A DNA stretch of 64,000 bases from a virus: IMG/VR virus record IMGVR_UViG_3300031088_000796, positions 44 through 64,043 of that record, one strand, 5' to 3'. The notes under the pieces were generated by a model. The model had not been told where the DNA came from. It searched no databases and worked only from the letters and a program-made list of their open reading frames with translations. The position numbers were made by a program, and so were the translations under genes. Positions 2,206-63,500 of the stretch are shown here, piece by piece. Numbering within the stretch: position 1 is the stretch's first letter; the number at the start of each line of letters is the position of its first letter.

Positions 2206-2976
2206 ATGTCCGCAGCGCGAAACAAGACATTTGAAGAGGTGCTGACCGAGCAGGTCATCGCGTTTTCTGAGAGCGCTCGCCCCGGCGAAATCATCACCGC
2301 CAGCGTTGAACGGCTGTTTACTGACGTCGTAAAGGAAGTGCTGAGCCCACATAGCAGTTTTGGCACCCGGATTAAGGAAGAAATGGCCAACGCGCTGCCG
2401 TCGAACATTTCTAACGTGATGGCGCTGCCTCGATATAACGACCTGATTGTCACCGCGCTGAAACAGCACCTTTCAAGCGCTGGGGTCACTGGCGATTTAC
2501 TCCGTCGCGCTGAACAGGCCATTGATGAGGTGTTACGTGACGAGGTTATTCCTGAGTTTGTGAGCCTCACCGAGCTGCTGGACGCGTTCATTCAAGTGCA
2601 TCAGGAAAAGGCGGCGGAAAGAGGTTGGTTTGTTCCGCACATCACCCTGATGGAGGGCGGAAGTGCGCGAGCCAGGACAATCCATGTGCTATTCGATGCC
2701 GAGCCTGAGATTGCCTACCGGGAGCGCCACGGGCTGCACGAGCGTACCCGTTCCGAAATGGATTATTCCAACAGCCTGAGCGTGCGCATCACCGGCCATA
2801 CCGATCGAGGTTTTGAGAGCGGTGAGGTGCGCGCGGCAATGTTGGAAGGTCAGCCAATCGGTCGCCATTTCTCAATGACGACGAAGTGGCAAAAGTTGGT
2901 CGCCGCCCTCTATTTCGGCGCTTCAAAGCTGATCATCGACTGCAAAGAAGACGATTTTACCTACGGTAACGAGTAA
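2206..2976 (+). CDS. hypothetical phage protein
   Basis: 256-aa ORF with GGAG RBS. Confidence 0.7.
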   Translation: MSAARNKTFEEVLTEQVIAFSESARPGEIITASVERLFTDVVKEVLSPHSSFGTRIKEEMANALPSNISNVMALPRYNDLIVTALKQHLSSAGVTGDLLRRAEQAIDEVLRDEVIPEFVSLTELLDAFIQVHQEKAAERGWFVPHITLMEGGSARARTIHVLFDAEPEIAYRERHGLHERTRSEMDYSNSLSVRITGHTDRGFESGEVRAAMLEGQPIGRHFSMTTKWQKLVAALYFGASKLIIDCKEDDFTYGNE

Positions 2977-3030
2977 CCAACCTGGTGCACCACAGGTTGG
3001 TGCGCCCCTTTCTCAAAGGGAGCTTCAAAA

Positions 3031-4038
3031 ATGCCGATTCGACACGCCATAGTGCATCTGATTGATAAAAAACCGGATGGCACGCCTGCGGTACTGCACG
3101 CCCGTGATGCCGACCTGGCTGAATCCGCCGCGCTCGACAACATGCTGGCGGACCTCAACGAGAGCTACAACGCCAAGCAAGGCAAGGCTTGGGGATTCTT
3201 CCATGCCGAGTCCGGCGCGTACCCGTTCAGTGGGTGGTTGAAAGAGTACCTGACAGGGAAACAGGACTTCACCGGTTTCAGCCGCGAGGCCGTGGAACAC
3301 CTCCAGCGATTGATGGAAGAGTCAAATCTCTCAACCGGTGGCCACGTACTTTTTGCGCACTATCAACAAGGCATGACCGACTACCTGGCGATCGCTCTTC
3401 TGCACCACAGCGAAGGGGTAGCGGTGACCGACGAGCTGGACGTGATGCCCTCGCGCCATCTGGACCTGGGCCAGCTGCACCTGGCGGCGCGCATCAACGT
3501 CTCCGAGTGGCAGAGCAACCCCAACTCGAAACAGTACGTGTCCTTTATCAAGGGCAAGAACGGTCGCAAGGTATCGGAGTACTTCCGTGACTTCATTGGC
3601 TGCCAGGAAGGCGTCGACGGCCCCGGCGAAACCCGCACCTTGCTCAAGGCGTTCACCGACTTCGTTGAAAGCTTAGACTTGCCCGATGAGTCCGCCCGCG
3701 AAAAGACCAAGACCCTGGTGGACTACGCCAGCAGCCAGACTCGCCTGGGCGAGACCATCAGCCTGGAAGAGTTGTCGGGGCTGATTGACGAGGATCGTCC
3801 AAAGGCGTTCTACGACCACATCCGCAACAAGGACTACGGCCTGTCACCTGAAATTCCAGCGGACAAACGCACCCTCAACAAATTTCGCCGCTTCACCGGG
3901 CGCGCCGAAGGCTTGTCGATCAGCTTCGAAGCACACCTGTTGGGCGACAAGATTGAATTCGATGAAACGGGCGGCACGCTGACTCTTCGCGGTTTGCCCC
4001 AGGCATTGACCGACCAACTCAAGCGGGCCAAGGCCTGA
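3031..4038 (+). CDS. yejK: Nucleoid-associated protein YejK/NdpA family
   Basis: [17 protein letters not shown]...[12 protein letters not shown]...[14 protein letters not shown]...[16 protein letters not shown] is the typical YejK pattern. Confidence 0.9.
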
Positions 4039-7090: not shown

Positions 7091-7413
7091 GCGGACAAGG
7101 TGAGCCCCGCAAGGGGTTTGGGTCGAATGGCACCACGTTTCACGTTCACCTGGACGTGCGGGGCGCGCTGCGCGACTTAAAAAAAAGCCAGCTCAAAGGA
7201 TTGTTTCGCTTTGAGGATGGCCGGGCGTGTACCGCCGAGGAAGCACGGGAGCATCTGTGCGAATGCCTGGCCCAGGGCAAGAACGTTTTGCCGTTCGGGC
7301 CGCCCTGTGAGGGCTTCGATTTTGCGGGCGGTGGGTGTCCTGGCCACGACCATGCGGCACCTGCTGACCCATTCACCGCTGTACCAACCCCATCAGCATC
7401 ACAAGGAGTATGA
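7087..7413 (+). CDS. hypothetical phage protein
   Basis: ATGA-coupled; [19 protein letters not shown] motif. Confidence 0.6.
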
Positions 7414-7415
7414 CC

Positions 7416-7610
7416 ATGTTGATTTTAACTCGCCGAGTGGGTGAAACCATCTGCATTGGAAACGACATCACAGTCACTGTATTGGGCGTTCAAGGCTTGC
7501 AAGTGCGCTTGGGTGTTAACGCTCCCAAAACGGTGGCCGTGGACAGGGAGGAAATTGCTAAGCGTAAAGCTGATGGAGCGCCTAGCGCAGAGCCGGGGGG
7601 GCGCCAATGA
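7416..7610 (+). CDS. csrA: CsrA/RsmA-family translational regulator
   Basis: [47 protein letters not shown]; AAGGAG RBS. Confidence 0.95.
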
Positions 7611-20614: not shown

Positions 20615-22165
20615 ATGGCCAAGCCAAAGCCCAAAAGTCTGCGCCTAGAATCAGACCCGAGGTGGCCAGCTTTCATCGAACGTTACGCCTTCGACCTGTA
20701 CAAGTTCGCCGTCGAAGCGTGCCTGATGGATGTCACCCCGCAGCAGAAAGAACTCTTCGACGAGACGTCCGTTTTTGGCTGTCGCGTCTCGGTGTCGTCT
20801 GGCCACGGTACCGGCAAGACTCGCGGCTTTGGTGTGACCTGCCTGTGGCACCTGCTCAGTTACCTGCACTCAAACACCTATGTGACGGCGCCCAAGCTCA
20901 AGACCGTACGGGAGGGCGTGTGGAAAGAGATCACCACGATTCTGGCGCAAATCCGTAAGGGGCCCCACGCTTGGATCGCTGACTACGTAGTGATTCAGGC
21001 CGAGAAGGTCTATGTAGTCGGTCACAGCGCCACCTGGTACGTCACCACACGCACCGCCCCGCGCGGCTCACCTGAAAATCTGGCCGGTACCCACGGCGAG
21101 TACCTGTTGTGGCTGGCGGACGAAGCGTCAGGCATTCCAGACGAAAACTTTGGCGTGATCGGTGGCGCCCTTACAGATGACCGCAACCGCTTCGTCATGG
21201 CCAGCCAGCCAACCCGATCCAGCGGCTTCTTTTGGGATACGCATCACGGGCAGTCGATCAAACGGGGCGGGCCTTGGGTACCGCTGGTATTCAACTCGGA
21301 AGAGAGCCCAATTGTCTCCCTCAAGTTCATCAGGGAGAAGCGCCAGCAGTACGGCGGTGTCGGCGAAGCGGAGTATCAAATCAAGGTGAAGGGGATGTTC
21401 CCTACCAACTTGAGCAAATACCTGCTGAACACGACGCTGCTTGAGCGCGCTATTGCGGCTCAAAGTCCAATCCTGCCAGGTGAAGAGTGGGGCCACCTCA
21501 TCGTTGTCGACGTCGCCGCTGGCGTTGGGCGTGACAAGACTGTGGCCACGCACATGCGCGTAAGCGGTAAAGGCGATCGGATGCTCAACGAGCGGCGCCG
21601 GAAAGTTGAAGTGGTCGACATCCCGATCTATAGCTCCACCGAGGACTGGACGCCGCTGGCGGTCAAGTTGCGCGACTACGCCATGCGCTTGCCCAACGTC
21701 ACCATAGTGATCGACGTAAGCGCCATGGGCGTGCAGTTCATGAAGCGTCTCCAGGAGCTGCAAGAGGGCAGCATGATCATCCAGGGCGTGCAGTGGGGCG
21801 CTCGTCCGCACTCAAACGAATACCGCAAGCGATTCCTTAACCAGAGGGCGCAATGCACCGTGCACGCCACAGAGGCGATCAAAGACGGCGTGGTCAAGCT
21901 GGCGAAGAAGCATCAGCGCGACCTGATCGACCAAGGCTCACGCCTGCCGTACTCCTTCGACGATCAGGGGCGCTACAAGATCGCCACCAAGGAAAGCATG
22001 GAAGCCGACGGGCTTTCATCCCCGGACCTTTTTGACACCATCTGCATGGCGTTTCTTGAGGACGTCAATTACATCGCGTGCAGCGAGCAGAGCGCGATGG
22101 TGAAGACATCTCGCGCTGAAGCGACCCTGAAAAAAGCCATGTCCAGATTTGATAACGTCGCATAA
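20615..22165 (+). CDS. terL: Terminase large subunit (PacB-like)
   Basis: Walker A SGHGTGKT, Walker B LWLADEA, coupling motif SQP, nuclease VDVAAG / IDVSAMG / SPDLFD. Confidence 0.92.
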   Translation: MAKPKPKSLRLESDPRWPAFIERYAFDLYKFAVEACLMDVTPQQKELFDETSVFGCRVSVSSGHGTGKTRGFGVTCLWHLLSYLHSNTYVTAPKLKTVREGVWKEITTILAQIRKGPHAWIADYVVIQAEKVYVVGHSATWYVTTRTAPRGSPENLAGTHGEYLLWLADEASGIPDENFGVIGGALTDDRNRFVMASQPTRSSGFFWDTHHGQSIKRGGPWVPLVFNSEESPIVSLKFIREKRQQYGGVGEAEYQIKVKGMFPTNLSKYLLNTTLLERAIAAQSPILPGEEWGHLIVVDVAAGVGRDKTVATHMRVSGKGDRMLNERRRKVEVVDIPIYSSTEDWTPLAVKLRDYAMRLPNVTIVIDVSAMGVQFMKRLQELQEGSMIIQGVQWGARPHSNEYRKRFLNQRAQCTVHATEAIKDGVVKLAKKHQRDLIDQGSRLPYSFDDQGRYKIATKESMEADGLSSPDLFDTICMAFLEDVNYIACSEQSAMVKTSRAEATLKKAMSRFDNVA

Positions 22166-22655: not shown

Positions 22656-23503
22656 CACACAGCCGACACGAAGAGAATTTGGCCTACCTGGCTAGGATGG
22701 GGCGCCTGAGCAAGACCAAGAAGGCCAACGAGCGCGATGGGTACACCAGCTTTTATGAGAAGAAAGGCCGCCCGGCTGGCGTTTCGTTGAAGCCAACCGA
22801 CGTTCCGTCGCTGGTGGCTACAGCCCTGTCCAGCGGTGGCCCGATCAAAACCGGTGAAGCCTTTGAGCACCTGTTATCGGTGGTGTGTGACAGTTCCCGG
22901 TTCTATGCCTACCACTTCATCATCGCGGCTTCACGCGGTACCGGTGGATGCCGAGCGATTCTATTGAGCGCCCGCACGCTGAATGGCCCCTGCCAGTCCC
23001 GCGCAGCAACCTTGGCCTACGCCACGAAACTGGTTGAGTATGCTGGTGCGTTGGGTTCGCCTCGGGTGATGATCGACGAGACGTCACATTGTTGCTTCCT
23101 GGCCCAGGCACTTAACCATGGCGTGCCCAACAACCTGGTATGGGCGGACGCGCGCGTGCAGTGGCCACCTACCGATGAGGCGTTAAGGACACAGTACCTG
23201 GACAACTATGCCTTGGGGTTTGACCGCTACCGACAGGCGCTGGCCACCAACTCGGTGAAGCTCCCCGAAATGGATTTGCTGGCAGACCAGGTAAAGGCCA
23301 TGGCACCACGGTTGGATGCAGAAGGGCGGATGACCCTCAACAGCCCTGGCGACAAGATGGAGCGTGAGCTGAACGCCCTATGCCTGCTGTACCTGGACGT
23401 GGCAAGCGCTCATCTGATGGTGCCAGGCTCGCGGGTTGAGCCTGGCCAGGCATTCGCGCGGCCTCCCGGAGACCGGTATTCAGCAAGACTTGACCATGTT
23501 TGA
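22652..23503 (+). CDS. Degenerate paralogue of the terminase nuclease domain
   Basis: KLVEYA..LG...VMIDE, VQWP, YLDNYA, VKLP...L.DQ...LDAEGR, NALCLLYLD are collinear with the TerL C-terminus. Confidence 0.6.
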   Translation: MTHSRHEENLAYLARMGRLSKTKKANERDGYTSFYEKKGRPAGVSLKPTDVPSLVATALSSGGPIKTGEAFEHLLSVVCDSSRFYAYHFIIAASRGTGGCRAILLSARTLNGPCQSRAATLAYATKLVEYAGALGSPRVMIDETSHCCFLAQALNHGVPNNLVWADARVQWPPTDEALRTQYLDNYALGFDRYRQALATNSVKLPEMDLLADQVKAMAPRLDAEGRMTLNSPGDKMERELNALCLLYLDVASAHLMVPGSRVEPGQAFARPPGDRYSARLDHV

Positions 23504-23557
23504 TAACAGTTATTAAGTCAGCTATTCTGAATGCACGGTTATCTGGAGATAAAAAAC

Positions 23558-23815
23558 ATGATTAGTGCCGATCTTGGCAAGTCGCTTGAAAACTATGTGA
23601 CGCAACTCACCGAGTCCGGTCGCTACGGCTCGAAAAGCGAAGTCCTGCGTGAAGGTGTACGGTTGGTCCAGGATCGTGAAACCCGCCTGGCGGCTTTGGA
23701 CGCCTCAATCGCTCGCGGCCTGGGCGATATCGAAGCGGGCCGCACCAAGCCTGCGGCAGAGGTCTTTGACCGACTGGCAGCAAGATACGAGGCGATGGTT
23801 GATAAGCCCGAATGA
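23558..23815 (+). CDS. parD: ParD-family antitoxin
   Basis: SGRYGSKSEVLREGVRL...LAALDASIARGL.D..AGR. Confidence 0.9.
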   Translation: MISADLGKSLENYVTQLTESGRYGSKSEVLREGVRLVQDRETRLAALDASIARGLGDIEAGRTKPAAEVFDRLAARYEAMVDKPE

Positions 23816-24102
23816 TCGTCCACATCACAGATGAAGCTGTAGGCGATCTTGAGCAAATCGGCGACTACATCGCCCAGGACAATCCACGCCGTGCGTTGTC
23901 GTTCGTCCTTGAGCTGCGTGACAAGTGCCTGAGCTTGGCCAGCACCTACCAATCCTTCCCCCTCATTGCCCGCTACGGCCTACGCCGCAGGATCCATGGC
24001 AATTATGCGATCTTCTACCAGGTGGAAGCTGATCGCGTTGTTGTCGTGCACGTCCTTCATGGTGCGATGGATCACGCGTCGATCTTTCTCGACTCTGAAT
24101 AA
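23812..24102 (+). CDS. parE: ParE/RelE-family toxin
   Basis: ITDEAVGDLEQIGDYIAQDNP.RA..F...YAIFY...VHVLHG; ATGA-coupled to the antitoxin. Confidence 0.9.
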   Translation: MIVHITDEAVGDLEQIGDYIAQDNPRRALSFVLELRDKCLSLASTYQSFPLIARYGLRRRIHGNYAIFYQVEADRVVVVHVLHGAMDHASIFLDSE

Positions 24103-24119
24103 GCCCCACTGCGCTGTCT

Positions 24120-24190
24120 AATGGCTCAAAAGGATGGTTCTTTTATAGGTGGCTCATTTAAGTTAGCCATTCTCTAAATGAGCCAACCCT
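24120..24190. promoter_or_regulatory. Candidate res site
   Basis: Inverted repeat TGGCTCATTTA (24150-24160) / TAAATGAGCCA (24175-24185), extra TGGCTCA at 24122, directly upstream of the resolvase. Confidence 0.6.
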
Positions 24191-24232
24191 GATATGGTTG
24201 GGTCTTTAGGGTATACCCAAAGGAGCCAGGCT

Positions 24233-24889
24233 ATGACCCCCACCAACGTTGCGCGGGTTTATCTGCGTGTCAGCACCGAAGGCCAGGACTTGCAGCGACA
24301 GGAAGCGATAATCGGCGACGCACGAAACTCGGGCTATTACGTGGCGGCGGTCTATCGTGAAAAAGCGTCAGGCGCACGCCCCGACCGTCCCGAACTGCTG
24401 CGCATGATCGAGGATCTACAACCGGGCGAAGTTGTCATTGCGGAAAAGATTGACCGCATCAGCCGTCTGCCGTTGGCGGAAGCGGAAAAGCTCGTTGAGA
24501 CAATTCGGGCCAAAGGCGCGCGTCTGGCTGTACCGGGTATCGTTGACCTGTCTGAGTTGGCAGAAGCGTCGAGTGGGGTCGCCAAGGTGGTTATACAGAG
24601 CGTGCAGGAGATGCTGTTGCGCGTGGCCCTGCAAATGGCGCGCGATGATTTTGAGGATCGCCGTGAGCGGCAGCGTCAGGGCATCGACCTGGCCAAGGGC
24701 GCAGGGCGCTACCTTGGACGTAAGCCAGACACAAAAATGCACGAGCGCGTTATTGCGCATAAGCGTAACGGTACCAGCATTGCGGAAACCGCAAGACTGG
24801 CCGACTGTAGCGTCAGCCAGGTTAAGCGCATCTGGGCCCAGTACACGGCCAACACAAGTTCCGCTCCGCAACTCCTCACACACCAATAG
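24233..24889 (+). CDS. Small serine recombinase (resolvase)
   Basis: YLRVST..QDLQRQ, EKASG, EKIDRISR, RRERQRQGI..AK..GRYLGRK, C-terminal HTH. Confidence 0.92.
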   Translation: MTPTNVARVYLRVSTEGQDLQRQEAIIGDARNSGYYVAAVYREKASGARPDRPELLRMIEDLQPGEVVIAEKIDRISRLPLAEAEKLVETIRAKGARLAVPGIVDLSELAEASSGVAKVVIQSVQEMLLRVALQMARDDFEDRRERQRQGIDLAKGAGRYLGRKPDTKMHERVIAHKRNGTSIAETARLADCSVSQVKRIWAQYTANTSSAPQLLTHQ

Positions 24890-24905
24890 GAAAGGAACCC
24901 CGGCT

Positions 24906-25148
24906 ATGCCGACCTATACCGACCAAGAAAAAACGCTGTACCTGAATCAAGCCCGGCGCAAGGTGCTGGCCATCGCCAAGGCGAATCGGAAGTACATCGA
25001 CCGCACCGAGGAACATGCCCGCGCCTATGCCGAGGCGCTGTATGACGTGGCCGCCATCACCGAAACAGAGCGCTTGACGCTGTTGGATGATGCCCGCGAG
25101 GCCGCCGAAGCCCGCGTGCGTGAATTCAGAGCCGCCGAACAGGCCTAA
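24906..25148 (+). CDS. small helical protein, array gene 1
   Basis: ATG after the repeat leader; HARAYAEALYDVAAITETE. Confidence 0.7.
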   Translation: MPTYTDQEKTLYLNQARRKVLAIAKANRKYIDRTEEHARAYAEALYDVAAITETERLTLLDDAREAAEARVREFRAAEQA

Positions 25149-25169
25149 CCGAAAGGAACCCCCGCCGTC

Positions 25170-25385
25170 ATGAGCAAATCCCCGATTCCTCGACCGGCGC
25201 CGCTGGCCGAACTTGAGCCTGGCGAGGACCTGGCCGCGTTGCGCCTGGATGCCGAGCGGTGGCGGTGGCTGCGTGAGCGGGCTGTGCGGATCCAGGGGAG
25301 CTACGTGTGGTATCAGGGTATCTATCTGGACCTGCGGGCCGATATCGGATTGGGCCATGTCCGGGAAGACAGCGAGCCACAATGA
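25170..25385 (+). CDS. small hypothetical protein, array gene 2
   Basis: ATG after the repeat leader; DAERWRWLRERA motif. Confidence 0.7.
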   Translation: MSKSPIPRPAPLAELEPGEDLAALRLDAERWRWLRERAVRIQGSYVWYQGIYLDLRADIGLGHVREDSEPQ

Positions 25386-25431
25386 AGCGCCGCGTTACCA
25401 TCACGTACTTGAACCGAAAGGAACCCCCGCC

Positions 25432-25659
25432 ATGCCGATTGATCCCCAGGCGGCGCCGCTGAATGCCGACCAAACCCGTGACCTGCAAGCGGCTGCCGTT
25501 GAGGCGCTGGCCGTGTTGCGCGACTTGCTGCGTGATCGAGCGACCGGCAATCACTACAGCCGTGTAAATGCCGCGTGCTGGAAGTTGTCGACCGCCCTGG
25601 AACAAGTGGTAGCCGATGACGTGCCGGGGAATGGCGCAAGTCCCGGCGCCGAAGGGTAG
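25432..25659 (+). CDS. small hypothetical protein, array gene 3
   Basis: ATG immediately after the repeat leader. Confidence 0.65.
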   Translation: MPIDPQAAPLNADQTRDLQAAAVEALAVLRDLLRDRATGNHYSRVNAACWKLSTALEQVVADDVPGNGASPGAEG

Positions 25660-25700
25660 GCCGCTGTATTACCAATAACGAACCGAAAGGAACCCCCGCC

Positions 25701-25943
25701 ATGAGTGTCCAAGTGAAAACCGCCAAGCTAGACCGATTCTCCCATGGTGTGCTGTATGCCGCCGCCCAGGTACAGCGTCTGCACGATGAGCCGCAAGTTG
25801 CAGCCGATCTGCTGAAAAACGCCGGGCTCGCCCAGGTCGATTGCAGCAGCTTGGACGAGTACGACAAAGAGTCATTGCGCGAAGTGAACAAGATCCGTGG
25901 AATGGGGCTGACCGGATTGGGCGAAGCTGCCGAGGGCGAGTGA
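25701..25943 (+). CDS. small hypothetical protein, array gene 4
   Basis: ATG immediately after the repeat leader. Confidence 0.7.
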   Translation: MSVQVKTAKLDRFSHGVLYAAAQVQRLHDEPQVAADLLKNAGLAQVDCSSLDEYDKESLREVNKIRGMGLTGLGEAAEGE

Positions 25944-26170
25944 GCCCGCCGCGCTACCAATAACGTGACCTAGGTTAAATCGGGGGGCACAGCCAGGCCG
26001 GCGGCGGTGCCCTTTTCTACCGCCTGGCGCCCCTTTGACTGGATTTATCGCAGTCTGCCCCATCCTCTTCAAAAATAGCTGGTGCGCTACGAAGACTCTC
26101 GGCCCACTATCAAATGGTAGTGGTTCGCGTTATCATTGATGCAAATATATGCACAAATGCATAAATTGCA

Positions 26171-26199
26171 TTGACGCCTAACCTGTACGTTTGTACAGT
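26171..26199 (+). promoter_or_regulatory. Sigma70 promoter with LexA (SOS) box
   Basis: -35 TTGACG (26171), 17-bp spacer, -10 TACAGT (26194); CTGT-ACGTTTGT-ACAG at 26183-26198 overlaps the -10. Confidence 0.75.
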
Positions 26200-26272
26200 G
26201 TTTGAGTGCCTACGACCTACGCACACCGATTGGACAAAAAATTTATGACTCTAAAGAAATGGAGAACGCATC

Positions 26273-27328
26273 ATGTTGAAAATTGGAGACACGTTTTACC
26301 TTACCGCACCAGTGGTAATTAATACGGATGAATACAAACCACAAACGTTCGGAGGTGGCGGCAGCGGCGACGGAAGTATAGGTAATAGCCGTCTAGGAGC
26401 ATTAATCAGTGCTGCGACGCGTGCGCATATTCTGAATACTTTCCCTGCCAAAATTGCTAAAGACGTTAAAGATCAAGAGAGCAATATTGTTACTAAACTG
26501 CAAACGCTGCCACAAACGTTAGATGATAGCATTGCTGCTCTTACCCAACAAAACCCGGCTCATAATACAGCCGATACTGCCAAACAGCTCGAAAATTATG
26601 TTACGGCCAATAATCTCCTTCTCACCCAAAAAACACAGGAGTACAGCCAACAAAAAACGATTGCAGATTCGTATTATTATGGACGGGACTTTTTTAGCTA
26701 TCCCACCAATCGATTCATCTCGCTTGCCATTAGCAATGGCATGGTTAATATGAGTCCTGATGTACACTATAAAAAATGGTTTACTTCGTTGCAGGCAGCG
26801 TATAACGCGAAATATATCCAATACCAAATCGACTATTTGACTAAAACTAAAGCGTGGTTGCAGGGGTTGACTCCAGAGATGTTAAGCGCTGAGGCGCTGC
26901 GCTTACAAGAAGCAGAGCGGCGTGCAGCGAATAAGCAGGTTCCGTCAATTCCAGCCGGCGTTTCTTTGGATGAAAACATGAGGATCTCTAAGGCTACGCG
27001 AGATTCAGCAAAGCTGGTTATAGGTGGTGAAAACGCATTTGTTTATGGTGTTTTTTACACCAAAGTTAGAAATGGCGGTGAATGGGATTATAAACAGCGA
27101 GGCCGCCAATTCGAAGAGTTTGGGAATTTCAACTACGGCGCCACTGGCACAGCAGCGGGAATTCCGGAGCAAATCCTGCTGCGTGCCGCAGGCGCGGCGC
27201 AAAGTCAAGCGGGCACGTCGGAAGCGGATTTTGGTAAGTGGTGGAAAGAAACTCCGTATGGGGATGACAGGGTAGATCAGGTCTGGATTAAAGCAGGCAT
27301 TGAACACGCTAAGACCAAAGGGTACTGA
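26273..27328 (+). CDS. Bacteriocin-like toxin with C-terminal Ntox44 (predicted RNase) domain
   Basis: Gly-rich N-terminus, helical middle, C-terminal KVRNGGEWDYKQ...FGNFNYGATG.AAG...LLRAAG.AQ...YGDD..DQ.WI..G; low GC. Confidence 0.8.
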   Translation: MLKIGDTFYLTAPVVINTDEYKPQTFGGGGSGDGSIGNSRLGALISAATRAHILNTFPAKIAKDVKDQESNIVTKLQTLPQTLDDSIAALTQQNPAHNTADTAKQLENYVTANNLLLTQKTQEYSQQKTIADSYYYGRDFFSYPTNRFISLAISNGMVNMSPDVHYKKWFTSLQAAYNAKYIQYQIDYLTKTKAWLQGLTPEMLSAEALRLQEAERRAANKQVPSIPAGVSLDENMRISKATRDSAKLVIGGENAFVYGVFYTKVRNGGEWDYKQRGRQFEEFGNFNYGATGTAAGIPEQILLRAAGAAQSQAGTSEADFGKWWKETPYGDDRVDQVWIKAGIEHAKTKGY

Positions 27329-27434
27329 GGTTTTTAAATCTGTTAAAAAACACGCGTTGACGCTACAGACAAGCCCTGTAAAATGGGCTTGTTATTATCA
27401 ATGCGCTCATTGAATACGCTCTAGGGGAATTTTT

Positions 27435-27845
27435 ATGAAACGATGGTTTCAAGGCTTATGCAACCTTGTTTTGGTTGGCTGCCTCGTTTACTTCGGTATA
27501 AGCTGGACAAGCTCACCATCCGCAGCTAATTTAGATGAAATTGTTTATAAACACCCCCTTGGTAATGGTAATTCGCTTTATGGAGCGCGCGACAATCGCG
27601 GGGGAGCGACGGTCGGGTTTTCCTATCGTTACTATATTTCCAAGCAGACTGATACTGATGAACAAGCGCTAGCTTTGTTAAATGAAAAGCCTCCATTTTT
27701 AATAACGAAAGATCCCGAGGTGTCCGCTAAAGTTGTAGATGGCGCACTCCATCTGTCCATTCGCGGAAGAGTTTATGATTTCAGTAATTACACGCTGAAT
27801 AGCATTAAGGATTCCGGTGATATTAAAGTCATTATAGGGCTATAA
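27435..27845 (+). CDS. membrane-anchored protein, candidate immunity/partner of the toxin
   Basis: N-terminal hydrophobic helix, GGATVGFSYRYY; low GC, directly downstream of the toxin. Confidence 0.6.
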   Translation: MKRWFQGLCNLVLVGCLVYFGISWTSSPSAANLDEIVYKHPLGNGNSLYGARDNRGGATVGFSYRYYISKQTDTDEQALALLNEKPPFLITKDPEVSAKVVDGALHLSIRGRVYDFSNYTLNSIKDSGDIKVIIGL

Positions 27846-38386: not shown

Positions 38387-40861
38387 ATGGCAAATCCTGT
38401 AATCATCAACCCCACGCTAACGTTGGCGGGCCAAAGGGCCGCATTCAACGCCGCCAATACGGGGATTGAGCTGCAATTAGACGCGGTATCTTTCGGGCGT
38501 GATCACTATGACCCGACCGGCGAAGAGCTGGCGCTCAAGAGTCCCGTAGGCAAAAAAGTTCCCCTGGCTGGGGCGAGCCGTCCGACTCCTTATCAAATCC
38601 GCATGGTCAGTACCTGGCGGGAAGATGTGGGCGAAGTGCCTATTGGAGAAATCGGCTTTTGGTCCGGCGACGTGCTTGTTTTTGTCTGGTCAAAGGCTGA
38701 CGGCTCGATCGCGTCCTACAAGACCGACGGCGTGTCCTATGTGCTGTTCAATGACCTGGCATTCGCACAGGTACCAGCCGACAGCATCAGTTTCACAGTA
38801 GATCCAAACGAAAGCGTGGCACTGGCCGCGCTGCTGGCGCATGAGGGCGCTGCGAACGCGCACCCACAGTATCTGCTGCGCGCTGACGTTGCGAAGGACA
38901 GCGGGCCTCTGGCGTGGCTTGGGCTGGCGGCTGGTACCGCCAATGCCCTGGACCTTTCTTTGGTCGCCAAGGAGGCAAAGCTACCTGACTACGCTCCTGG
39001 CCAACGCTTCCAATTCCGCGCCAAGACAACCAATACCGGGGCGGTGACCGCCAAAATCGCGGGACTGGGCGTGAAGTCGGTTAAAAAGGCTGGTGACGCG
39101 GGCTTGATCGACGTGGAGGCGGGTGACATCAAGGCCGATGCGCTCTATGACCTCAACTACGATGGCACCTCTTTCCAGTTAGGCGGTGGCGTAGGCTCGG
39201 GCAAGGCGTTTGTGCGGTACTCGTTTACCGCTTCCGTGGCACAGACCATCTTCCCTGCTGACCACACTATCGGCGCTACCGTCGTCCTGCGCGATGGCCG
39301 AGAGGTCACTGACTTCCTTTCGGATGGCGCCAAGATAACCATGCGTACCCCCTGCGACTTGGGGACCAGTGTAGAAATTCTGGCGTTCAAATCCTTCAAG
39401 GTTGCCGACACCTATACAAAGGCCGAGCTGCAAGCACTGCTCGCCACCGCGTCGGGGGTTCCCGTGGGGGCGATGTTGCCATTCCCGCGTGGGGTGCTGC
39501 CACCTGGCTTCCTGGAAGTAGACGGCTCCCAATTTGACCCGCTGATGTTCCCGGATCTAGCAGCCTTCCTGGGTGGCTCCAAGTTGCCTGAGTCGCGCGG
39601 TGAATTTCTGAGAGGCTGGGATCATGGCCGAGGTGTAGACCCCAACCGGGAAATTGGCAGCTTACAAGGGGATGACATCAAAGCTCACACCCATAAGGAC
39701 ATTGGTTTTGTCGATAGCGTGGGGGCGGGGGCGGGGGCATCTGGAATCACCGGAGCACAACCCACAGTCGGTTCGATTTTCGGGAAAGTTTATGGTCTCG
39801 GTGGTGCGAACTCGGCAAAAGGATATCAAGAAACCTCGCCTGGCTCGATGACTGGCGGCATTGGCGGGCTGGTATCTGGCAGTACAGGAGGAAGTGAATC
39901 GCGCCCACGAAACCTGGCGGTTATGTGGTGCATAAAGGCTTGGAACGCTCCAATCAATCAGGGAACGATTGACATCGCTGTGCTGGTGAGCACCGTCCAG
40001 GGCTTCATGCGCGACGAGGCCACCGTCGCAGAAATGACAACCGCACCCGACGCCGCCAGTAAACATTGGGTTTCTGTACGCCGTTTTCTGGCGGCAGTAG
40101 CCCTAAAGGCCGATATCGACAGCCCAACGTTCACCGGTAACCCTAAGGGCCCTACTCCTGCGGCATGGGATAAAAGTAAAGCTCTCGCTAATACCGAGTT
40201 CGTTAATGCTTCACAGGGTAGTTTCTCGATGCATGGCCCTATTTCTGCAAACAGAAGTTTGAATATTAAAGAAATAGGTGGCCTTTTATGGTTCAGCGGA
40301 AACTACAGCTTGGCGTTGCCTAAACCGTCGTCGCTTAGCTTACCTATGGGCGCAGCGGTAAATGTATTTACAACTTCGGTTGGTGGCAGCATTGTCTCTC
40401 AACCTGGGGTAGTTATTCAGGACCAGTCGGGTGCCCCCCAAACCACATTCAAAATGAGCCCCGGCCAATCTCTATGTCTAGTAGCAGTGTCGGATATCCA
40501 ATGGTTAGTTACAGACTCTACCGCTGGCTTGGAAAACAACTCTGACTTTCGCCAATCTAAAGCTGTTAACGGGTTCCGGTATTTGCCAGGAGGAATGCTT
40601 GAGTGCTGGGGGTTGTCAGCGCCTAGCACCGACAAAGTGAATATCACGTTCCCTGAACAGTTCTCTCAAATACCGTTCATTGTTCCCTATGACAGCTCTG
40701 CCCAAGGCGCAACTGTAATGACTCTCTGGCAAAACACTGCCGTAACAACGACCGGCTTTATTGCTCAGAATATGTGTTCATTGATTCGTGGAAGTACCGC
40801 TGTGAATGGGGTTACAAACTCTCAATGTAACTGGCGCGCCTGGGGCTGGGTTAATAAATAA
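38387..40861 (+). CDS. Tail fibre protein 1
   Basis: AHPQYL, collar domain PVGA..PFP...GFL..DG...RGEFLRGWD.GRGVD, DSPTFTGNP repeat, C-terminal LPGG..ECWG. Confidence 0.9.
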   Translation: MANPVIINPTLTLAGQRAAFNAANTGIELQLDAVSFGRDHYDPTGEELALKSPVGKKVPLAGASRPTPYQIRMVSTWREDVGEVPIGEIGFWSGDVLVFVWSKADGSIASYKTDGVSYVLFNDLAFAQVPADSISFTVDPNESVALAALLAHEGAANAHPQYLLRADVAKDSGPLAWLGLAAGTANALDLSLVAKEAKLPDYAPGQRFQFRAKTTNTGAVTAKIAGLGVKSVKKAGDAGLIDVEAGDIKADALYDLNYDGTSFQLGGGVGSGKAFVRYSFTASVAQTIFPADHTIGATVVLRDGREVTDFLSDGAKITMRTPCDLGTSVEILAFKSFKVADTYTKAELQALLATASGVPVGAMLPFPRGVLPPGFLEVDGSQFDPLMFPDLAAFLGGSKLPESRGEFLRGWDHGRGVDPNREIGSLQGDDIKAHTHKDIGFVDSVGAGAGASGITGAQPTVGSIFGKVYGLGGANSAKGYQETSPGSMTGGIGGLVSGSTGGSESRPRNLAVMWCIKAWNAPINQGTIDIAVLVSTVQGFMRDEATVAEMTTAPDAASKHWVSVRRFLAAVALKADIDSPTFTGNPKGPTPAAWDKSKALANTEFVNASQGSFSMHGPISANRSLNIKEIGGLLWFSGNYSLALPKPSSLSLPMGAAVNVFTTSVGGSIVSQPGVVIQDQSGAPQTTFKMSPGQSLCLVAVSDIQWLVTDSTAGLENNSDFRQSKAVNGFRYLPGGMLECWGLSAPSTDKVNITFPEQFSQIPFIVPYDSSAQGATVMTLWQNTAVTTTGFIAQNMCSLIRGSTAVNGVTNSQCNWRAWGWVNK

Positions 40862-58188: not shown

Positions 58189-60510
58189 ATGCAAATCACT
58201 CCCATAGAGAAAGCCCGCCTCAGTTCACGGTTATTGGCCCTACGCGCAATGCTGGTCGGAGGTGCGCTGAGAGCCTTGGAAAAGGTCCGAGTCAGTGCTG
58301 AGGCTCTGGATATCCGCAAGAGGCTGACCGGCAAAACCGTGGCTGCCCCTGTAGTTGATTCTGAAACCGCTGCCGAGCAGGTAGCTGACGACGGTCTGAG
58401 CGACGACCCCAACAGCCCAAACTACCGCTATGCGGATGTTGGCTACATCCCTGGTAGCCGCAAAGAAGAAGCGGCAGGCGTCATTCGAAAGGCGCGTGCC
58501 GAGGGCCGTATGCTTCGCGGTACCGATATTGACTTCAATGCGATTGAGGAAACCCCGCGTGAGGCCAGGGCCTTGGTGGTCAAGTCCAATCTGTTCGGTG
58601 TGGTCGACTGGGCTGGACTGAGAGCGGGCGGTACAGAACCCGCAGCAGCGTTCCTGATGGACCGGGTGTATGCCTCAATCGCCAAGGAGCCCTCTGAGGA
58701 CAGCGCCCAGGCGCGTCGGGCTTATGTGTTGGGTCTTGAGACGCTGCGCACGCGGTTGGAGCTTTGCAAGACGCCCAAGGAGCTTGTAGCCACGCTGACG
58801 GAGATCCGCGACGAGCTGCTGGGCTCTCAACTCAATGCAGATGAAGCAGAGCGATATCAGGAGATAGGAGACCGAACCCACGCTTTAACCGTCCAAATCC
58901 GTGATATCGAAGCCGAGCAATCGAAGGCTCAAAACGCAATGTATGAGGCGAGCCGCCTCAACAACAAAGCCCAACGAGACCTGGACAACCGTCTGGCTCG
59001 TGGCTGGTCAGTTGGGTCAGAGCACGAAACGGCAGTGAGTGAGGCTGAAAAGGCCTATCGCCAGAGCATGAAAACATGGTCTGACCTCCTTGGTATGAAC
59101 AAGCCTGTGCTGGAGGAATTGAATGCCGCCAGGGCTGCGCTGTATCAGGAACGCGCCGAAATCAAAGGGGTGGCCAAGTCGCGCAACTTGGACTCGCCCA
59201 TCAACCGCGCGTGGATGTCGATGGGTGACAAGTTCGTCAAAGCTCTGATGTTCCGCAGTTCACGAGGCTCCGAAGCCTTCGCCCGTCATGTTTCCAATGC
59301 GCTTTCCGGCGACCCAAAAGACTGGGAGTGGTCAGAAAAGAGCGGACAAGTGATCCAAGGGGCCCCAAAGGAACCGACCAAAAAACGGCAGACGTTCGCG
59401 CTGAAGGTAGTGGATAAGTTCGACCGGAAGGGCGGGCGCCCTATATCAGTCAACTCAACGCTTTCTTTGCAGAAACTGTGTGGTTTTCGCGCGGTTCAGT
59501 CGGGTAACTGGGTGCTGGATGACCGTGACAGTTCCAAATGGCACGTAGAGCAAAGCGCTGGGGCCATGATGGACATGGCCGACGTGCTGGGTATCAGTGA
59601 GGAAAAGCTTGGTTTCGGAGGGCGCTTGGGGCTTGCCTTTGGCGCCCGTGGTAAGGGGGGGAAGGGTGCCGCGACAGCGCACTACGAGCCGATCATGCGA
59701 GCGATCAACATCACCAAGATGAACGGTGGTGGTGGCCTTGGCCATGAGCACCTACATGCGATGGACAACATCCTGCCGGGCCTGTTGCGCGGTGAACCTG
59801 GTGCGGCATCCGAATTTGCAACGGAAAACCCCAACCTGGTACCCGAAGGCCCAATTCGTGACGCTTTCGTCGGCCTCAAACGCGCTCTAACCGAGGGCGA
59901 ACACCGTCTGCCTGAAATCATCAAGTTCACGCCACGCACGTTTGGGAACGCCCGTCTGAACCTGGACAGGCCCAGCAACGAAATTGCGCGCCGGATTAAG
60001 GCTGCTGGTAATGCTGAAGCTGCGGTGAGAGCGGTGGATGACTACTTCGGAGCCAGGGTTGACGCTCGATCGCTCAAGTACAAAAAGAACTGGCGAACGA
60101 TCGCCGCCGCTTATTTCCTGCCAGAAGGTACGACCGATGTGCAGTTGAACACGGGTAGACCTGTGTCGCGATACATGACCGAGGCCATGCTGTTGGATGC
60201 CTCAAAGGAGGGTAAGTACTGGTCATCGGCGCCGGAGTTGGCTGCTCGTGCGTTCCAGTCCTACCTGGAGGACAAATTGGCAACCATGGACCGCCAAAAC
60301 GACTATCTGAGCTGCCTGGCAGACAACAAACACCACTACTTCCCTGAAATGGGTGAGCCCTTCAAGCCTTACCCCGAGGGAGAAGAGCGGGCGCGCATCA
60401 GCGCCGCGTTTGATGAGTTGTTCAAGGCCCTGCGCGATGGCCAGGTGTTTGAGACGGCGCTGGCAAACACCGCGCTGCTGGATTCGATTTTTGGGGGTTG
60501 CGATGAGTAA
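58189..60510 (+). CDS. Large polyvalent protein (LPD1-type C-terminus; Dar/DdrB-related)
   Basis: YADVGYIPGSRKE, FRAVQSGNWV, AHYEP...INITK..GGG.L.HE..HA.D (HExxH), YWS...ELAARAFQSY. Confidence 0.7.
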   Translation: MQITPIEKARLSSRLLALRAMLVGGALRALEKVRVSAEALDIRKRLTGKTVAAPVVDSETAAEQVADDGLSDDPNSPNYRYADVGYIPGSRKEEAAGVIRKARAEGRMLRGTDIDFNAIEETPREARALVVKSNLFGVVDWAGLRAGGTEPAAAFLMDRVYASIAKEPSEDSAQARRAYVLGLETLRTRLELCKTPKELVATLTEIRDELLGSQLNADEAERYQEIGDRTHALTVQIRDIEAEQSKAQNAMYEASRLNNKAQRDLDNRLARGWSVGSEHETAVSEAEKAYRQSMKTWSDLLGMNKPVLEELNAARAALYQERAEIKGVAKSRNLDSPINRAWMSMGDKFVKALMFRSSRGSEAFARHVSNALSGDPKDWEWSEKSGQVIQGAPKEPTKKRQTFALKVVDKFDRKGGRPISVNSTLSLQKLCGFRAVQSGNWVLDDRDSSKWHVEQSAGAMMDMADVLGISEEKLGFGGRLGLAFGARGKGGKGAATAHYEPIMRAINITKMNGGGGLGHEHLHAMDNILPGLLRGEPGAASEFATENPNLVPEGPIRDAFVGLKRALTEGEHRLPEIIKFTPRTFGNARLNLDRPSNEIARRIKAAGNAEAAVRAVDDYFGARVDARSLKYKKNWRTIAAAYFLPEGTTDVQLNTGRPVSRYMTEAMLLDASKEGKYWSSAPELAARAFQSYLEDKLATMDRQNDYLSCLADNKHHYFPEMGEPFKPYPEGEERARISAAFDELFKALRDGQVFETALANTALLDSIFGGCDE

Positions 60511-63500
60511 CTTGAACCAGGCCGGTGCGCTATCGCCGATCGACCGTGCGCGACTGAGCGCCGAGCTGTTGCAGATTCGCGCGAGCCTTTTAGGAGCATC
60601 ACTACCACCGATTGAGCGGGTTCGGTCCAGTGCCCGAGGGTTGGCCATTCGCGCGCAGCTTGGCCAGCCAACGAAACCTGGTGCTGATGAAGGCCAGGCT
60701 GCGTTTGAGAAGGCGCGTCAGTTCTACCAGGAACACCTCAAAGGGCAATTGATTCAGTCTGTGGTGGGGCCGGTGATCGTTAATAGCGCCGGTTGGAAGA
60801 AGTCAAAGCAAGGCATGAAGTCTGACCTGTTGAAAGCCAGGCTGATTGAGTACGTGCGGGAGATCCTGGAAACCGGTACTGCTGGCCAGCGGCAAGAACC
60901 GCACAAAGACCGTAATGACGGGCTTATCGCGTTCTACTTCATTCAGAAACAGGTGCGCGTCGACGACCTGCTGGTGACCGCAGGTGTAACGGTGGCCGAG
61001 GATGCAAAGGGGAACCTGTTTTACAGCATTTCTCATGCAGACAGGGACGCTTGGAAGGCATATAAAAACGGCGTACCGGATTATGCAGGGGTAGGGCCCC
61101 GCTCCGGTGACGCCGATGACGGAATACTTGATGGCCTGCCACAAGTGCAGGAATCAGATGCCGACCAAGACACTGTAGCAGACGATGATATCAATATCAC
61201 CATCCTGGCGGTGGTAGCTGTTGAGTCGAGCGCTGTACCAGTACCGGCATCAAAAGGCGCCCAGGCCATCGCCACAGGTGTATTGCCGCAGAAGAATGGC
61301 GGCGTGCTGGTGGTGGGTGACCCTCAAGCCTTGGATGCCTACGCAAAGACCTACCTAGACCAGGCCAAGTACACCCTGGCCTCCACCGGGTTGCTGCTGA
61401 GTAAAAGTCAGGTGCGCCTGGCGCAATACCTACCCGCCACACAGGAAGTCTTGCCCTCGGGAGCGGTGATCTACACCTACGCGGAGATTGGCGGCGTGTC
61501 GGTGGCCGTTGGACGGGAGTTGTCAGGGATTGCCCGCGACCTGATTGAACTGAAAAGCCTGATGGCCCAGGAATGGGGCCCCGACAAGTTCAAGAGTGTG
61601 TTTGGTGAGGATGCGGCGGCGAAGGACGTGCAGGCCTACCAGGAAGGCCAGGCGGCAATTGCGCAGCGCAAACAGGACAATATCGACGGGGCCGCGCAGG
61701 CGCTGGCGGATCAGAAGCTGGCGCAGGAGTCGGAGAGCGCCAGGGTAGCCGCCGTAGCCGAAGAAACAGCAACGATCCTGAGTCAGCGGGATGCAGACGC
61801 CCGCGCCTACTTCGCAAAGACCCTCGGCGCCGGAAAGTCAGAAAACCCCATTTACCAAGCCTACCTAGACACCCTGGAAGAGTTGCCCACTTACGAGGCG
61901 GGCAACAACGCGGGTTTCTTGGGGTGGGCTGGTATCCGCGCGGGTGAGTTTGAGCGGCAGGGCGGCGGGCGCGTTTCGATGAACCACGATGCTTACCTGG
62001 CCTATGTCCGGGGTTGGGCAGATGAGCACTTGTCTGATCGGGTGAAGGGCCACGCGCGCGGCCAGCCGGAGGAAGCACAGAACACCCCCGGCTCTACAAT
62101 CGAAGCCGTCCAGACCGAGCAGTTGCCCACAACAAGCACGACCGCCCACGAGATCATCGAGTACACCACCAAAGGCAAAGGAAAGGTGCTGCGCGGGATC
62201 ATCCGTACAGACCTTACCCAAGCAGAAGCCAAGGCGATTGACCCCTACACCTGGCGCATGAGCGGCGGTTACTTTATCCGGGAAAAGTACCTCTCTGGCG
62301 ATACCAGCTCTGTGCAGGCCGCCCCGGTGCCGGTTGTGTTGAGCCCTGAACAGGAGGCTGAGAAGCAGGATCGCGACAGACGGGTAGCGCTGGAGCGCCA
62401 ACAACAGGCAATTGCCCACCAGGTGGGAAAGTTACGAGAGGCGGGTAGCAAGGCGATCGCCAGTGGCAGCGAAGGCATGAACGCCGACCGCAAAACCAAT
62501 ACTTCTCGCCGCGCGGGGATGGCTGCCAGTGCCTACGCCCGTGCTGCGTCTGACGAGGCGGAAGGGCAGACCCTGAACAACATCGCTGATGCGATCGAGG
62601 TGGGAGCGGCAGGGCCGCTTGCCAACCTGACCAGTCGTGCGCAACTTCAAGAACTGAAAAAGATCCTCATCCAGGCGAAGTTCGAATCTGAGCGCGGGCT
62701 TACCTACAGTGAGCAGCTGGCGTTGCGTGGTCAGCCGGTGGGAGAAGATGCGTTACGGCACGTCAGTATGCCAAACAGGTTGGTCTGGGCGAGCCGTTAC
62801 AGCAACGCTGCAATGACGTTAGCGAAGAAGGCTCCTACGGGGAACTCCAAGTTGATCGCAGCCTTGAAAAAGCTGGGAGACCGCACTGAACGCTGGCCGC
62901 TGGTTAACGACGGCGATATAGCTATAACCCGCAAGGCCTATCAAGTGTTGGGCACCATCAAAGAGACTTGGGATTTGAAAGATCCCATGGAAATGCTCGC
63001 CAGGGTAGAACGCCTCAAGCGTATGGGGGTCACCAACGAAATGCAGCTCCAGGACGCGTGCCGTGCACTTCTGCCCCATATGGCGGCAAAAAAGGAAGAG
63101 AGTGCTGTAGTGAAGTTGGAGCGGGCAATCATCGGCCAGAAGGTGGGAATCGACTTCTTCCCCACGCCTGCCGCCGAGGCACACCGCATGGCTCGCCTGG
63201 CGCGAATTACCAAGGGTATGCGGGTGTTGGAGCCAAGTGCGGGTAATGGCAACCTGGCGGATGCGGCTGCGGCAGCTGGTGGCGAAGTGGACGTGATTGA
63301 GATCAGTAGCCAGCTGCGCGACATTCTCACCGCCAAGGGTTACACCGTCGTGGCGCAGGACTTCAACAGTTTCACGCCGGACGAGCCCTACCAGGCGATT
63401 CTTATGAATCCACCGTTCTCTAAACGCCAGGATGCTGAGCACATCATGCGTGCGTTCGGCATGTTGGCCAATGGCGGGACATTGGTTGCAATCGCAGGGG

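Follow-up and report, generated by a model that had tools for sequence, protein, structure and literature searches.

Integrons pair an IntI-type tyrosine recombinase with an attI site, and their attC sites are imperfect inverted repeats of 57 to 141 nucleotides (nt) at the 3' ends of the cassettes. In T4-type phages, promoter-early stem-loop (PeSL) motifs are found between small, mostly orphan, nonessential genes in a plastic region of the genome (Arbiol et al. 2010; PMC2839356; PMC4122927). A PeSL consists of a strong sigma-70 promoter and a terminator hairpin, the differences among related phages map to the motifs, recombination between motifs has been proposed to drive the shuffling, and mini-circles have been shown physically (PMC2839356; PMC4122927). 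The CUP elements of the leading region of the IncN plasmid pKM101 (Delver and Belogurov 1997, as cited in PMC6289460) contain promoters and ArdK-binding operators (PMC6289460). Here, we describe an array of four small open reading frames (ORF1 to ORF4), each behind a copy of the same short leader, in IMG/VR virus record IMGVR_UViG_3300031088_000796; the 64-kb stretch analyzed (positions 44 to 64,043 of the record) is referred to as the window. The original prediction for this locus offered an integron-like capture array served by the adjacent serine recombinase, or co-regulated leaders of the CUP type. Our findings favor another explanation, which we consider the probable one, namely, that the array is built on a conserved operon-internal junction that both expresses and exchanges interchangeable small accessory genes in Pseudomonas mobile elements.

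The 20-mer leader AACCGAAAGGAACCCCCGCC occurs exactly at positions 25147, 25412, and 25681 of the window, each time on the plus strand, where shuffled sequences are expected to yield none, and no other copy is present in the 64 kb even when up to three mismatches are allowed. Leader 1, at 24890, is a degenerate copy (GAAAGGAACCCCGGCT) with two mismatches to the 16-nt core. It belongs to the same repeat family (D1), with 75% identity over 24 nt, and the spacing within this family is 261, 265, and 269 nt. An ATG lies 0 to 3 nt past each leader and opens an ORF of 71 to 80 amino acids (aa). The second recurring segment is a tail, the 11-mer TACCAATAACG, which is exact at 25670 and 25955, after ORF3 and ORF4. 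A looser variant read from the sequence, GCCGCGTTACCATCACGTAC, follows ORF2 at 25389 to 25408, and the ORF1-ORF2 junction has no such box. Given that matches to the 11-mer with up to two mismatches are not enriched in the window (14 found versus 9 expected), the weight of the tail motif lies in its two exact copies and its recurrence in other loci. No leader or gene follows the terminal copy (25943 to 25965). Downstream of it lies a GC-rich hairpin with a T run (25985 to 26024), a candidate terminator that would close the operon. This hairpin is stable by RNAfold, and a simple terminator scan makes no call there since the loop is longer than 8 nt. The anatomy is thus as originally predicted, with three exact leaders and one partial one, a second conserved segment after genes 2, 3, and 4, and a last copy of that segment with no gene behind it.

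The intercistronic gaps of the array are 21, 46, and 41 nt long and contain no sigma-70-like site, which argues that the leaders are ribosome-binding regions within a polycistronic message and not promoters. The leader is rich in A and C, with 4% T and 22% G, and its AAGGA Shine-Dalgarno sequence lies 8 to 9 nt before the ATG. Conservation sets in abruptly at GAAAGG and runs up to the ATG, and codon 2 is partly conserved. The start regions are also poorly structured. The three from the window fold worse than 191 to 200 of 200 shuffles in RNAfold, and 58 distinct start regions had a mean z score of +1.15 compared to -0.17 for random windows of the same loci (P = 7e-10).

Upstream of the leader, the junction is marked by stop codons and, in many cases, by a box. 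Of 67 junctions, 37 have a TGA or TAG overlapping the 5' edge of the core, and 21% of junctions, versus 6% of shuffles, have a stop triplet in each of the three frames within 42 nt. The box type CGTTACCCNTAACGAAC was found in 21 of 55 junctions and a different box, CCTGTAAACAATTCGCAC, in nine, with the remaining junctions having neither; in plasmid pA506, the box is a perfect 14-bp palindrome, CGTTACGCGTAACG. Given that upstream ORFs run into the box and end there in different frames (for example, with ..LPVTN, ..RYP, or ..ITPYEPT before the stop), the box is best regarded as a nucleotide-level element. A role for it as an RNA hairpin was considered and rejected, as the stem has at most 5 bp and these regions are less structured than shuffles. 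Rfam contains no family matching within 23400 to 26400. A second repeated intercistronic unit, a perfect palindrome GCGTGACGCGTCAC followed by ..AAGGAGATTCA..ATG, was seen in another locus (L150, positions 2400 to 3300), where it precedes three or four consecutive genes further down one array.

ORF1, ORF2, and ORF4 are real genes under purifying selection. The ratio of nonsynonymous to synonymous differences (pN/pS) was 0.03 to 0.28 for ORF1 against five homologs, 0.26 for ORF2, and 0.20 for ORF4 over the shared core. ORF3 has no homolog beyond itself among 5.8 billion clustered proteins, where identical copies of it come from 8 contigs. It is an orphan within a conserved leader frame, and its GC content per codon position matches that of ORF1, ORF2, and ORF4. 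None of the four ORFs has a Pfam, PHROG, or NCBIfam family; for ORF2, the nearest clusters in the Atlas are all hypothetical viral proteins, together with a weak Ead/Ea22 lead. The homologs of ORF4 are mostly 68-aa proteins on ~50-kb plasmid contigs of Pseudomonas aeruginosa. The four proteins show no similarity to one another, given that BLASTP comparisons were blank and profile-profile probabilities were below 6%, in agreement with the initial impression that they are unrelated.

The leader is not confined to this element. We searched public collections with GAAAGGAACCCCCGCCATG, and most arrays discussed here were ascertained by exact match to the core. The core with its start codon, GAAAGGAACCCCCGCC-ATG, precedes more than 30 unrelated families of 70- to 100-aa ORFs on Pseudomonas phages, conjugative plasmids (pA506, pSDM007, and pD4A-46), and chromosomal contigs. 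Meaningful matches to GAAAGGAACCCCCGCCATG came from Pseudomonas contigs and 28 IMG/VR stretches, many with two to four copies placed 260 to 320 nt apart; single matches in other high-GC organisms are consistent with chance. In whole Pseudomonas genomes of 6 to 7 Mb, the 16-mer was found only inside such arrays. A set of 53 leader-preceded ORFs, almost all of them 68 to 102 aa long, fell into 32 sequence clusters. Among 51 that were scanned, 48 had no Pfam family, the exceptions being one Lar restriction-alleviation protein, one DUF551 protein, and one DUF7706 protein, and NCBIfam gave no family for any of the 51. A full-text literature search found no paper describing the leader, and a search on KlcB and small ORFs gave no relevant find.

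Leader-like matches were present on 42 Pseudomonas plasmid records. Plasmid pA506 has three leaders within a run of small genes after klcB-hicAB, pD4A-46 has a box and a leader before a gene located two genes downstream of the ArdR anti-restriction gene, and pSDM007 carries the ORF1 cassette behind a perfect leader. In megablast searches with the region, this pSDM007 cassette was the only match among plasmids, and phages gave none. The ORF1 homolog of pSDM007 (L001, 6017 to 6259) has an in-frame TAA at codon 9, and the record annotates a shorter coding sequence from 6053; the copy is either decaying or uses a restart.

Two complete circular phage records, G003 and G004, have four leaders each, all four of G004 in one array, with the arrays near a CI-like repressor and a ParA-like protein. 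Both records carry HK97-type capsid genes and are therefore unrelated tailed phages. Neither they nor a third record, G005 (11 kb, 28% complete, no capsid match), has a homolog of the window TerL or of KlcB, and none has VirB4. The carriers of such arrays include true tailed phages and conjugative plasmids as well as the phage-plasmid of the window. As a separate observation, the G003 record (the source of L093 and L097) is 76.6 kb long and classed as complete, with terminal repeats; its HK97 capsid genes at 1176 to 2027 and 39291 to 40142 are about 38 kb apart, and its leader arrays are at 21965 and 60102 to 60652. It may be a dimer, or the assembly may have joined two related phages of ~38 kb.

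Given that the collection was ascertained on the core sequence, we also sought ORF1 homologs by protein sequence alone (25 clusters) and fetched six contexts. All six homologs stand behind a leader variant. Five are in rows of 5 to 12 small genes, and in four of these rows several neighbors also carry leader variants; the sixth (L148) stands alone with its leader in a NinX prophage. In four loci, the row follows KlcB/HicAB or precedes an SSB gene; the other two are the NinX prophage and a phage early operon, where a Peptidase_S24 repressor-like gene precedes the ORF1 homolog. PHROG and Pfam scans of the large ORFs flanking other arrays were blank, and one of five mutually similar large ORFs was identified as a member of the KlcB family by tblastn against plasmids. 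The 360- to 510-aa ORFs upstream of the arrays in L013, L055, L079, L081, and L086 have KlcB proteins as relatives (PF27393, KlcB_N; PF27190, KlcB_3rd). The blank Pfam scan is therefore not evidence that a flanking ORF lacks a family, as KlcB-type ORFs were missed by the Pfam copy used.

Comparison of these loci suggests that the leaders are also the points at which arrays differ. At the nucleotide level, other loci match the window over no more than one unit from leader to leader, with L105 sharing 24890 to 25166 alone, pSDM007 24867 to 25158 alone, and L081 25144 to 25369 alone. Across all array loci, 27 ends of high-scoring segment pairs (HSPs) fell within 10 nt of a leader, compared to 8.8 expected and a maximum of 18 in 1,000 permutations. 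The order of families varies as well. The families of ORF1 and ORF2 (A and C) are adjacent as A-C in the window and in L145, occur as C-x-A in L149, and family C follows another family as B-C in L081; elsewhere, family A is followed by six different genes. Arrays with homologs of ORF1 and ORF2 thus differ in order and neighbors and do not always repeat the same four genes, and the picture of conserved boundaries around variable cargo has been confirmed, with homology to the window ending at leaders. On P. aeruginosa plasmids, the core of ORF4 sits behind an unrelated leader and with a different N terminus (the first 9 codons differ from those in the window); therefore, cargo and leader can be recombined.

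Several of our results weigh against the model that we favor, described below, or qualify it. The enrichment of block ends is only about threefold and comes from HSPs that are not independent, and many block ends fall at other gene boundaries. The 16 contigs with an exact ORF3 all show the same array, with L136 being 100% identical over 4.9 kb, and we saw no recombination intermediate or recent exchange. Leaders are not homogenized within arrays (0.356 versus 0.351; P = 0.38), and frequent local gene conversion was not seen. Ascertainment by exact core match inflates the apparent conservation of the core. An open Shine-Dalgarno sequence alone fails to explain the strict C-rich spacer CCCCCGCC, and a known function was found for none of the four proteins of the window.

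In the model that we favor, the four ORFs would form the distal part of one polycistronic operon. A single transcript would begin, probably, at the promoter-like site of parD near 23500 or in the region upstream of the resolvase and would terminate near 26000, at the hairpin with its T run. Each ORF would be translated from the same conserved intercistronic junction, composed of an upstream stop-rich, often palindromic box (CGTTACCCNTAACGAAC) and a 16-nt A/C-rich, G-poor leader (GAAAGGAAYCCCCGCC). The leader would keep the start region unfolded and present its AAGGA right after the upstream stop, and a gene dropped between two junctions would be translated efficiently. The junction serves a large, fast-evolving pool of unrelated accessory genes of 70 to 100 aa, found where Pseudomonas temperate phages, phage-plasmids, and conjugative plasmids have their early or establishment genes. 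These genes would come, go, and change order as cassettes that run from leader to leader, most likely through homologous or short-homology recombination with no dedicated site-specific recombinase. We propose the junction as the place where arrays recombine given that it is the only sequence that neighboring genes have in common. The cargo may function in establishment or anti-defense, as hinted by the one Lar protein among the 51 ORFs and by the arrays near KlcB, ArdR, or SSB genes.

If the junction is the exchange point, it marks an easily searched pool of small genes that move between Pseudomonas phages and plasmids, and the 16-mer can be used to find hundreds of candidate genes for establishment or anti-defense, most of them without a family. 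Modular shuffling would then be organized around a translation-initiation signal within an operon and not just around promoters, as for PeSL and CUP elements, or recombinase sites, as in integrons. A constraint on translation initiation is suggested by how strictly the C-rich spacer is conserved. Given that the identity of CCCCCGCC across elements, without homogenization, exceeds what an open Shine-Dalgarno sequence needs, there is room for a specific trans-acting reader, and such a factor may be involved in its conservation. We put forward more tentatively, as a possibility well short of probable, that the junction is a dedicated translational cassette junction, combining a stop-rich box that works in any frame with a strictly conserved open leader, that is read by a specific factor of the host or the element and exchanges small accessory genes across tailed phages, phage-plasmids, and conjugative plasmids. 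If this holds true, the junction would be the counterpart of integrons and PeSLs inside an operon, need no recombinase, and join phage and plasmid gene pools, and the exchanged genes, probably for anti-defense or establishment, would be expressed at once in the recipient operon.

We considered that the leader could instead be the operator of a trans-acting translational regulator, either an Rsm/CsrA protein on the GGA of the Shine-Dalgarno sequence or another protein or RNA that reads the C tract. In that case, one switch would act on all cassettes and the conservation would reflect recognition, which is compatible with cassette shuffling. Throughout the family, in very different elements, the core is retained with sharp edges and without local homogenization, suggesting selection for a specific sequence beyond a lack of structure. 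The Shine-Dalgarno sequence of the leader includes A-N-GGA, and the window encodes a canonical CsrA/RsmA homolog of 66 aa (7410 to 7610, plus strand; 78 bits against PF02599), whose possible targets include leaders with a GGA, like those of the array. CsrA is also encoded on pSDM007 and on a P. syringae pv. actinidiae plasmid bearing leader genes, and L142 has a faint CsrA match upstream of its array. However, G003, G004, and pA506 carry arrays without a CsrA gene, for which host Rsm proteins could substitute. The published CsrA/Rsm consensus is fuller than ANGGA, and the leader matches this core alone. CsrA/Rsm-regulated leaders have a GGA in or close to the Shine-Dalgarno sequence, ideally in a hairpin loop, and usually two or more such sites. 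Each leader here has one GGA, inside the Shine-Dalgarno sequence and outside any hairpin, given that the region is unstructured. A search of both strands found no complementary RNA encoded in the window. We judge an operator of this kind to be rather unlikely as the explanation of the array.

A less likely origin is tandem duplication of a gene unit of ~265 nt, with the coding parts diverging in an arms race and the leader held by selection, so that the cargo genes would be cryptic paralogs rather than captured genes. The near-constant period (261, 265, and 269 nt) and the similar length of the ORFs (71 to 80 aa) would fit such an origin, many cargo ORFs in other arrays begin alike (ATGCCGA..), and two clusters kept apart by BLAST, c3 and c7, are related by profile comparison (91%). 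The profile comparisons among the four families of the window, which stayed below 6%, argue against it. In addition, other arrays contain the same families with order and neighbors changed, which requires exchange, and the core of ORF4 is found behind an unrelated leader. We consider this origin improbable.

The proximity of the serine recombinase raised the question of an integron-like platform, in which this enzyme would insert and excise cassettes at the leader or tail sites. The recombinase gene directly adjoins the array, with its TAG stop codon (24887 to 24889) abutting leader 1, and the anatomy is cassette-like, including a terminal site with no gene behind it. However, the Resolvase family is absent from G003 and G004, despite their four leaders each, in a search that does detect the copy in the window. 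None of 25 resolvase relatives (61 to 87% identity; from P. amygdali, P. avellanae, Xanthomonas, rhizobia, and others) has a leader or array downstream, and they cease to match the window at 24852, within the final codons of the gene. The resolvase query found no relatives in IMG/VR. The gene travels instead with parD and parE, in a separately mobile block. A Pseudomonas sp. contig (L113, 4265 to 5620) shares the whole block from 23499 to 24852 at 80% identity, and the 130-nt gap between parE and the resolvase holds the dyad TGGCTCATTTA/TAAATGAGCCA. Upstream TGGCTC...GAGCCA dyads are conserved in relatives while their inner bases change, as is typical of a res region; they probably mark a res or operator region. 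Serine-recombinase sites are dyad symmetric with a central crossover dinucleotide, whereas no such symmetry is seen in the leader core, and the palindrome of the box is missing from many junctions. A Pfam scan of the part of the window between 21 and 30 kb found no tyrosine recombinase. The parDE-resolvase genes with their dyads are arranged as one would expect for a multimer-resolution module of a plasmid that has a res region of its own, and the array was joined to this module at about 24853 to 24889. Given its absence from G003 and G004, the lack of arrays beside its 25 relatives, and its association with parDE and the dyads, the resolvase is a bystander, and the array is independent of it. 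The capture array served by the adjacent resolvase is thereby rejected, and a platform of this kind is very unlikely.

CUP-like transcriptional elements, in which each leader would have its own repressor-controlled promoter, are just as hard to sustain: a plasmid context resembling the IncN leading region, with anti-restriction genes nearby, and a box that is often a 14-bp palindrome and could bind a dimeric DNA-binding protein speak for them, while the short gaps devoid of sigma-70-like sites, the boxless ORF1-ORF2 junction, and the upstream ORFs that read through the box in several frames speak against them. The CUP analogy of the original prediction survives in its plasmid context, with KlcB, ArdR, HicAB, and SSB genes nearby, and not in its promoters, given that the leaders are 16- to 20-nt translation-initiation regions without a promoter match; the idea of co-regulated leaders is therefore kept in a modified, translational form.

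The features of the locus are collected in Table 1. Directly after the terminator region of the array, the window contains a low-GC (42 to 51%) island (26157 to 27845), which encodes an Ntox44-domain protein (26273 to 27328) behind a promoter-like site (26171 to 26199). A 136-aa ORF without a family (27435 to 27845) is probably the immunity gene of the Ntox44 toxin.

Table 1. Features of the parD-parE-resolvase module and the small-gene array (positions in the window)
Feature	Position	Strand	Basis or remark
parD-parE-resolvase stabilization module	23499-24852	+	Pfam; 80% identical block in L113
Promoter-like site	23500-23528	+	Promoter scan
parD	23531-23815	+	Pfam ParD_antitoxin
parE	23812-24102	+	Pfam ParE_toxin
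Dyad-rich res-like region	about 24125-24230		Dyads kept in relatives
Serine recombinase, resolvase/invertase type, 218 aa	24233-24889	+	PF00239, E=3.9e-21; HTH_7, E=1.9e-07; PHROG 125 'DNA invertase', E=5e-37
Leader 1, GAAAGGAACCCCGGCT	24890-24905	+	Family D1, 75% over 24 nt; 2 mismatches to 16-nt core
ORF1, 80 aa	24906-25148	+	25 homologous clusters; widespread small-protein family
Leader 2	25147-25166	+	Exact 20-mer; overlaps ORF1 stop codon; ATG 3 nt later
ORF2, 71 aa, RWRWLRE motif	25170-25385	+	Homologs in L081 and L145; 78-aa homolog in L149
Tail/box after ORF2, GCCGCGTTACCATCACGTAC	25389-25408	+	Sequence reading; resembles consensus CGTTACCCNTAACGAAC
Leader 3	25412-25431	+	Exact 20-mer
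ORF3, 75 aa, orphan	25432-25659	+	Codon-position GC pattern as in the other three
Tail/box after ORF3, AGGCCGCTGTATTACCAATAACG	25658-25680	+	Family D3; 11-mer exact
Leader 4	25681-25700	+	Exact 20-mer
ORF4, 80 aa	25701-25943	+	15 homologous clusters
Terminal tail/box	25943-25965	+	Family D3, 78%; 11-mer exact; no gene behind
Candidate terminator, GC-rich hairpin and T run	25985-26024	+	Sequence reading, RNAfold

Set beside the systems described so far, the array shares features with several. The kilC/klcB accessory region of IncP-type and related Pseudomonas plasmids provides a similar setting, given that the arrays of pA506, L145, and L147 lie directly downstream of KlcB (with HicAB), whereas the window has no KlcB homolog and its array sits behind the parDE-resolvase module of a phage-plasmid. 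The array resembles an integron in being a unidirectional row of promoterless small genes with a recurring site and with cargo and order that vary between related arrays. It differs in that there is no IntI-type tyrosine recombinase, the adjacent gene being a serine recombinase (PF00239), and in that arrays occur without any associated recombinase and each gene has its own conserved Shine-Dalgarno leader. Unlike attC sites, the recurring site measures 16 to 40 nt and has no folded attC architecture, the junctions are 21 to 46 nt long, an inverted-repeat search finds no such arms, and their folding is below that of shuffles.

The closest analogues are the IncN CUP elements and, nearest in logic, the PeSL cassettes of T4-type phages. 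As with CUP elements, a repeat stands before several unrelated small genes for establishment or anti-restriction, and the ArdB/KlcA-type neighborhood is analogous; unlike CUP elements, the leaders here are ribosome-binding regions of 16 to 20 nt without promoter features, and no sequence similarity was seen. As with PeSL, the Pseudomonas junction is repeated between small genes, and the boundaries between one relative and another coincide with the motif. Unlike PeSL, the Pseudomonas junction is a translational element within an operon, lacking both a promoter and a stable hairpin; its carriers are Pseudomonas temperate phages and plasmids, and the shuffling here is seen in sequence comparison. 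The feature is a case of modular shuffling bounded by a regulatory motif, a principle shared with the PeSL cassettes and here placed at a translational junction.

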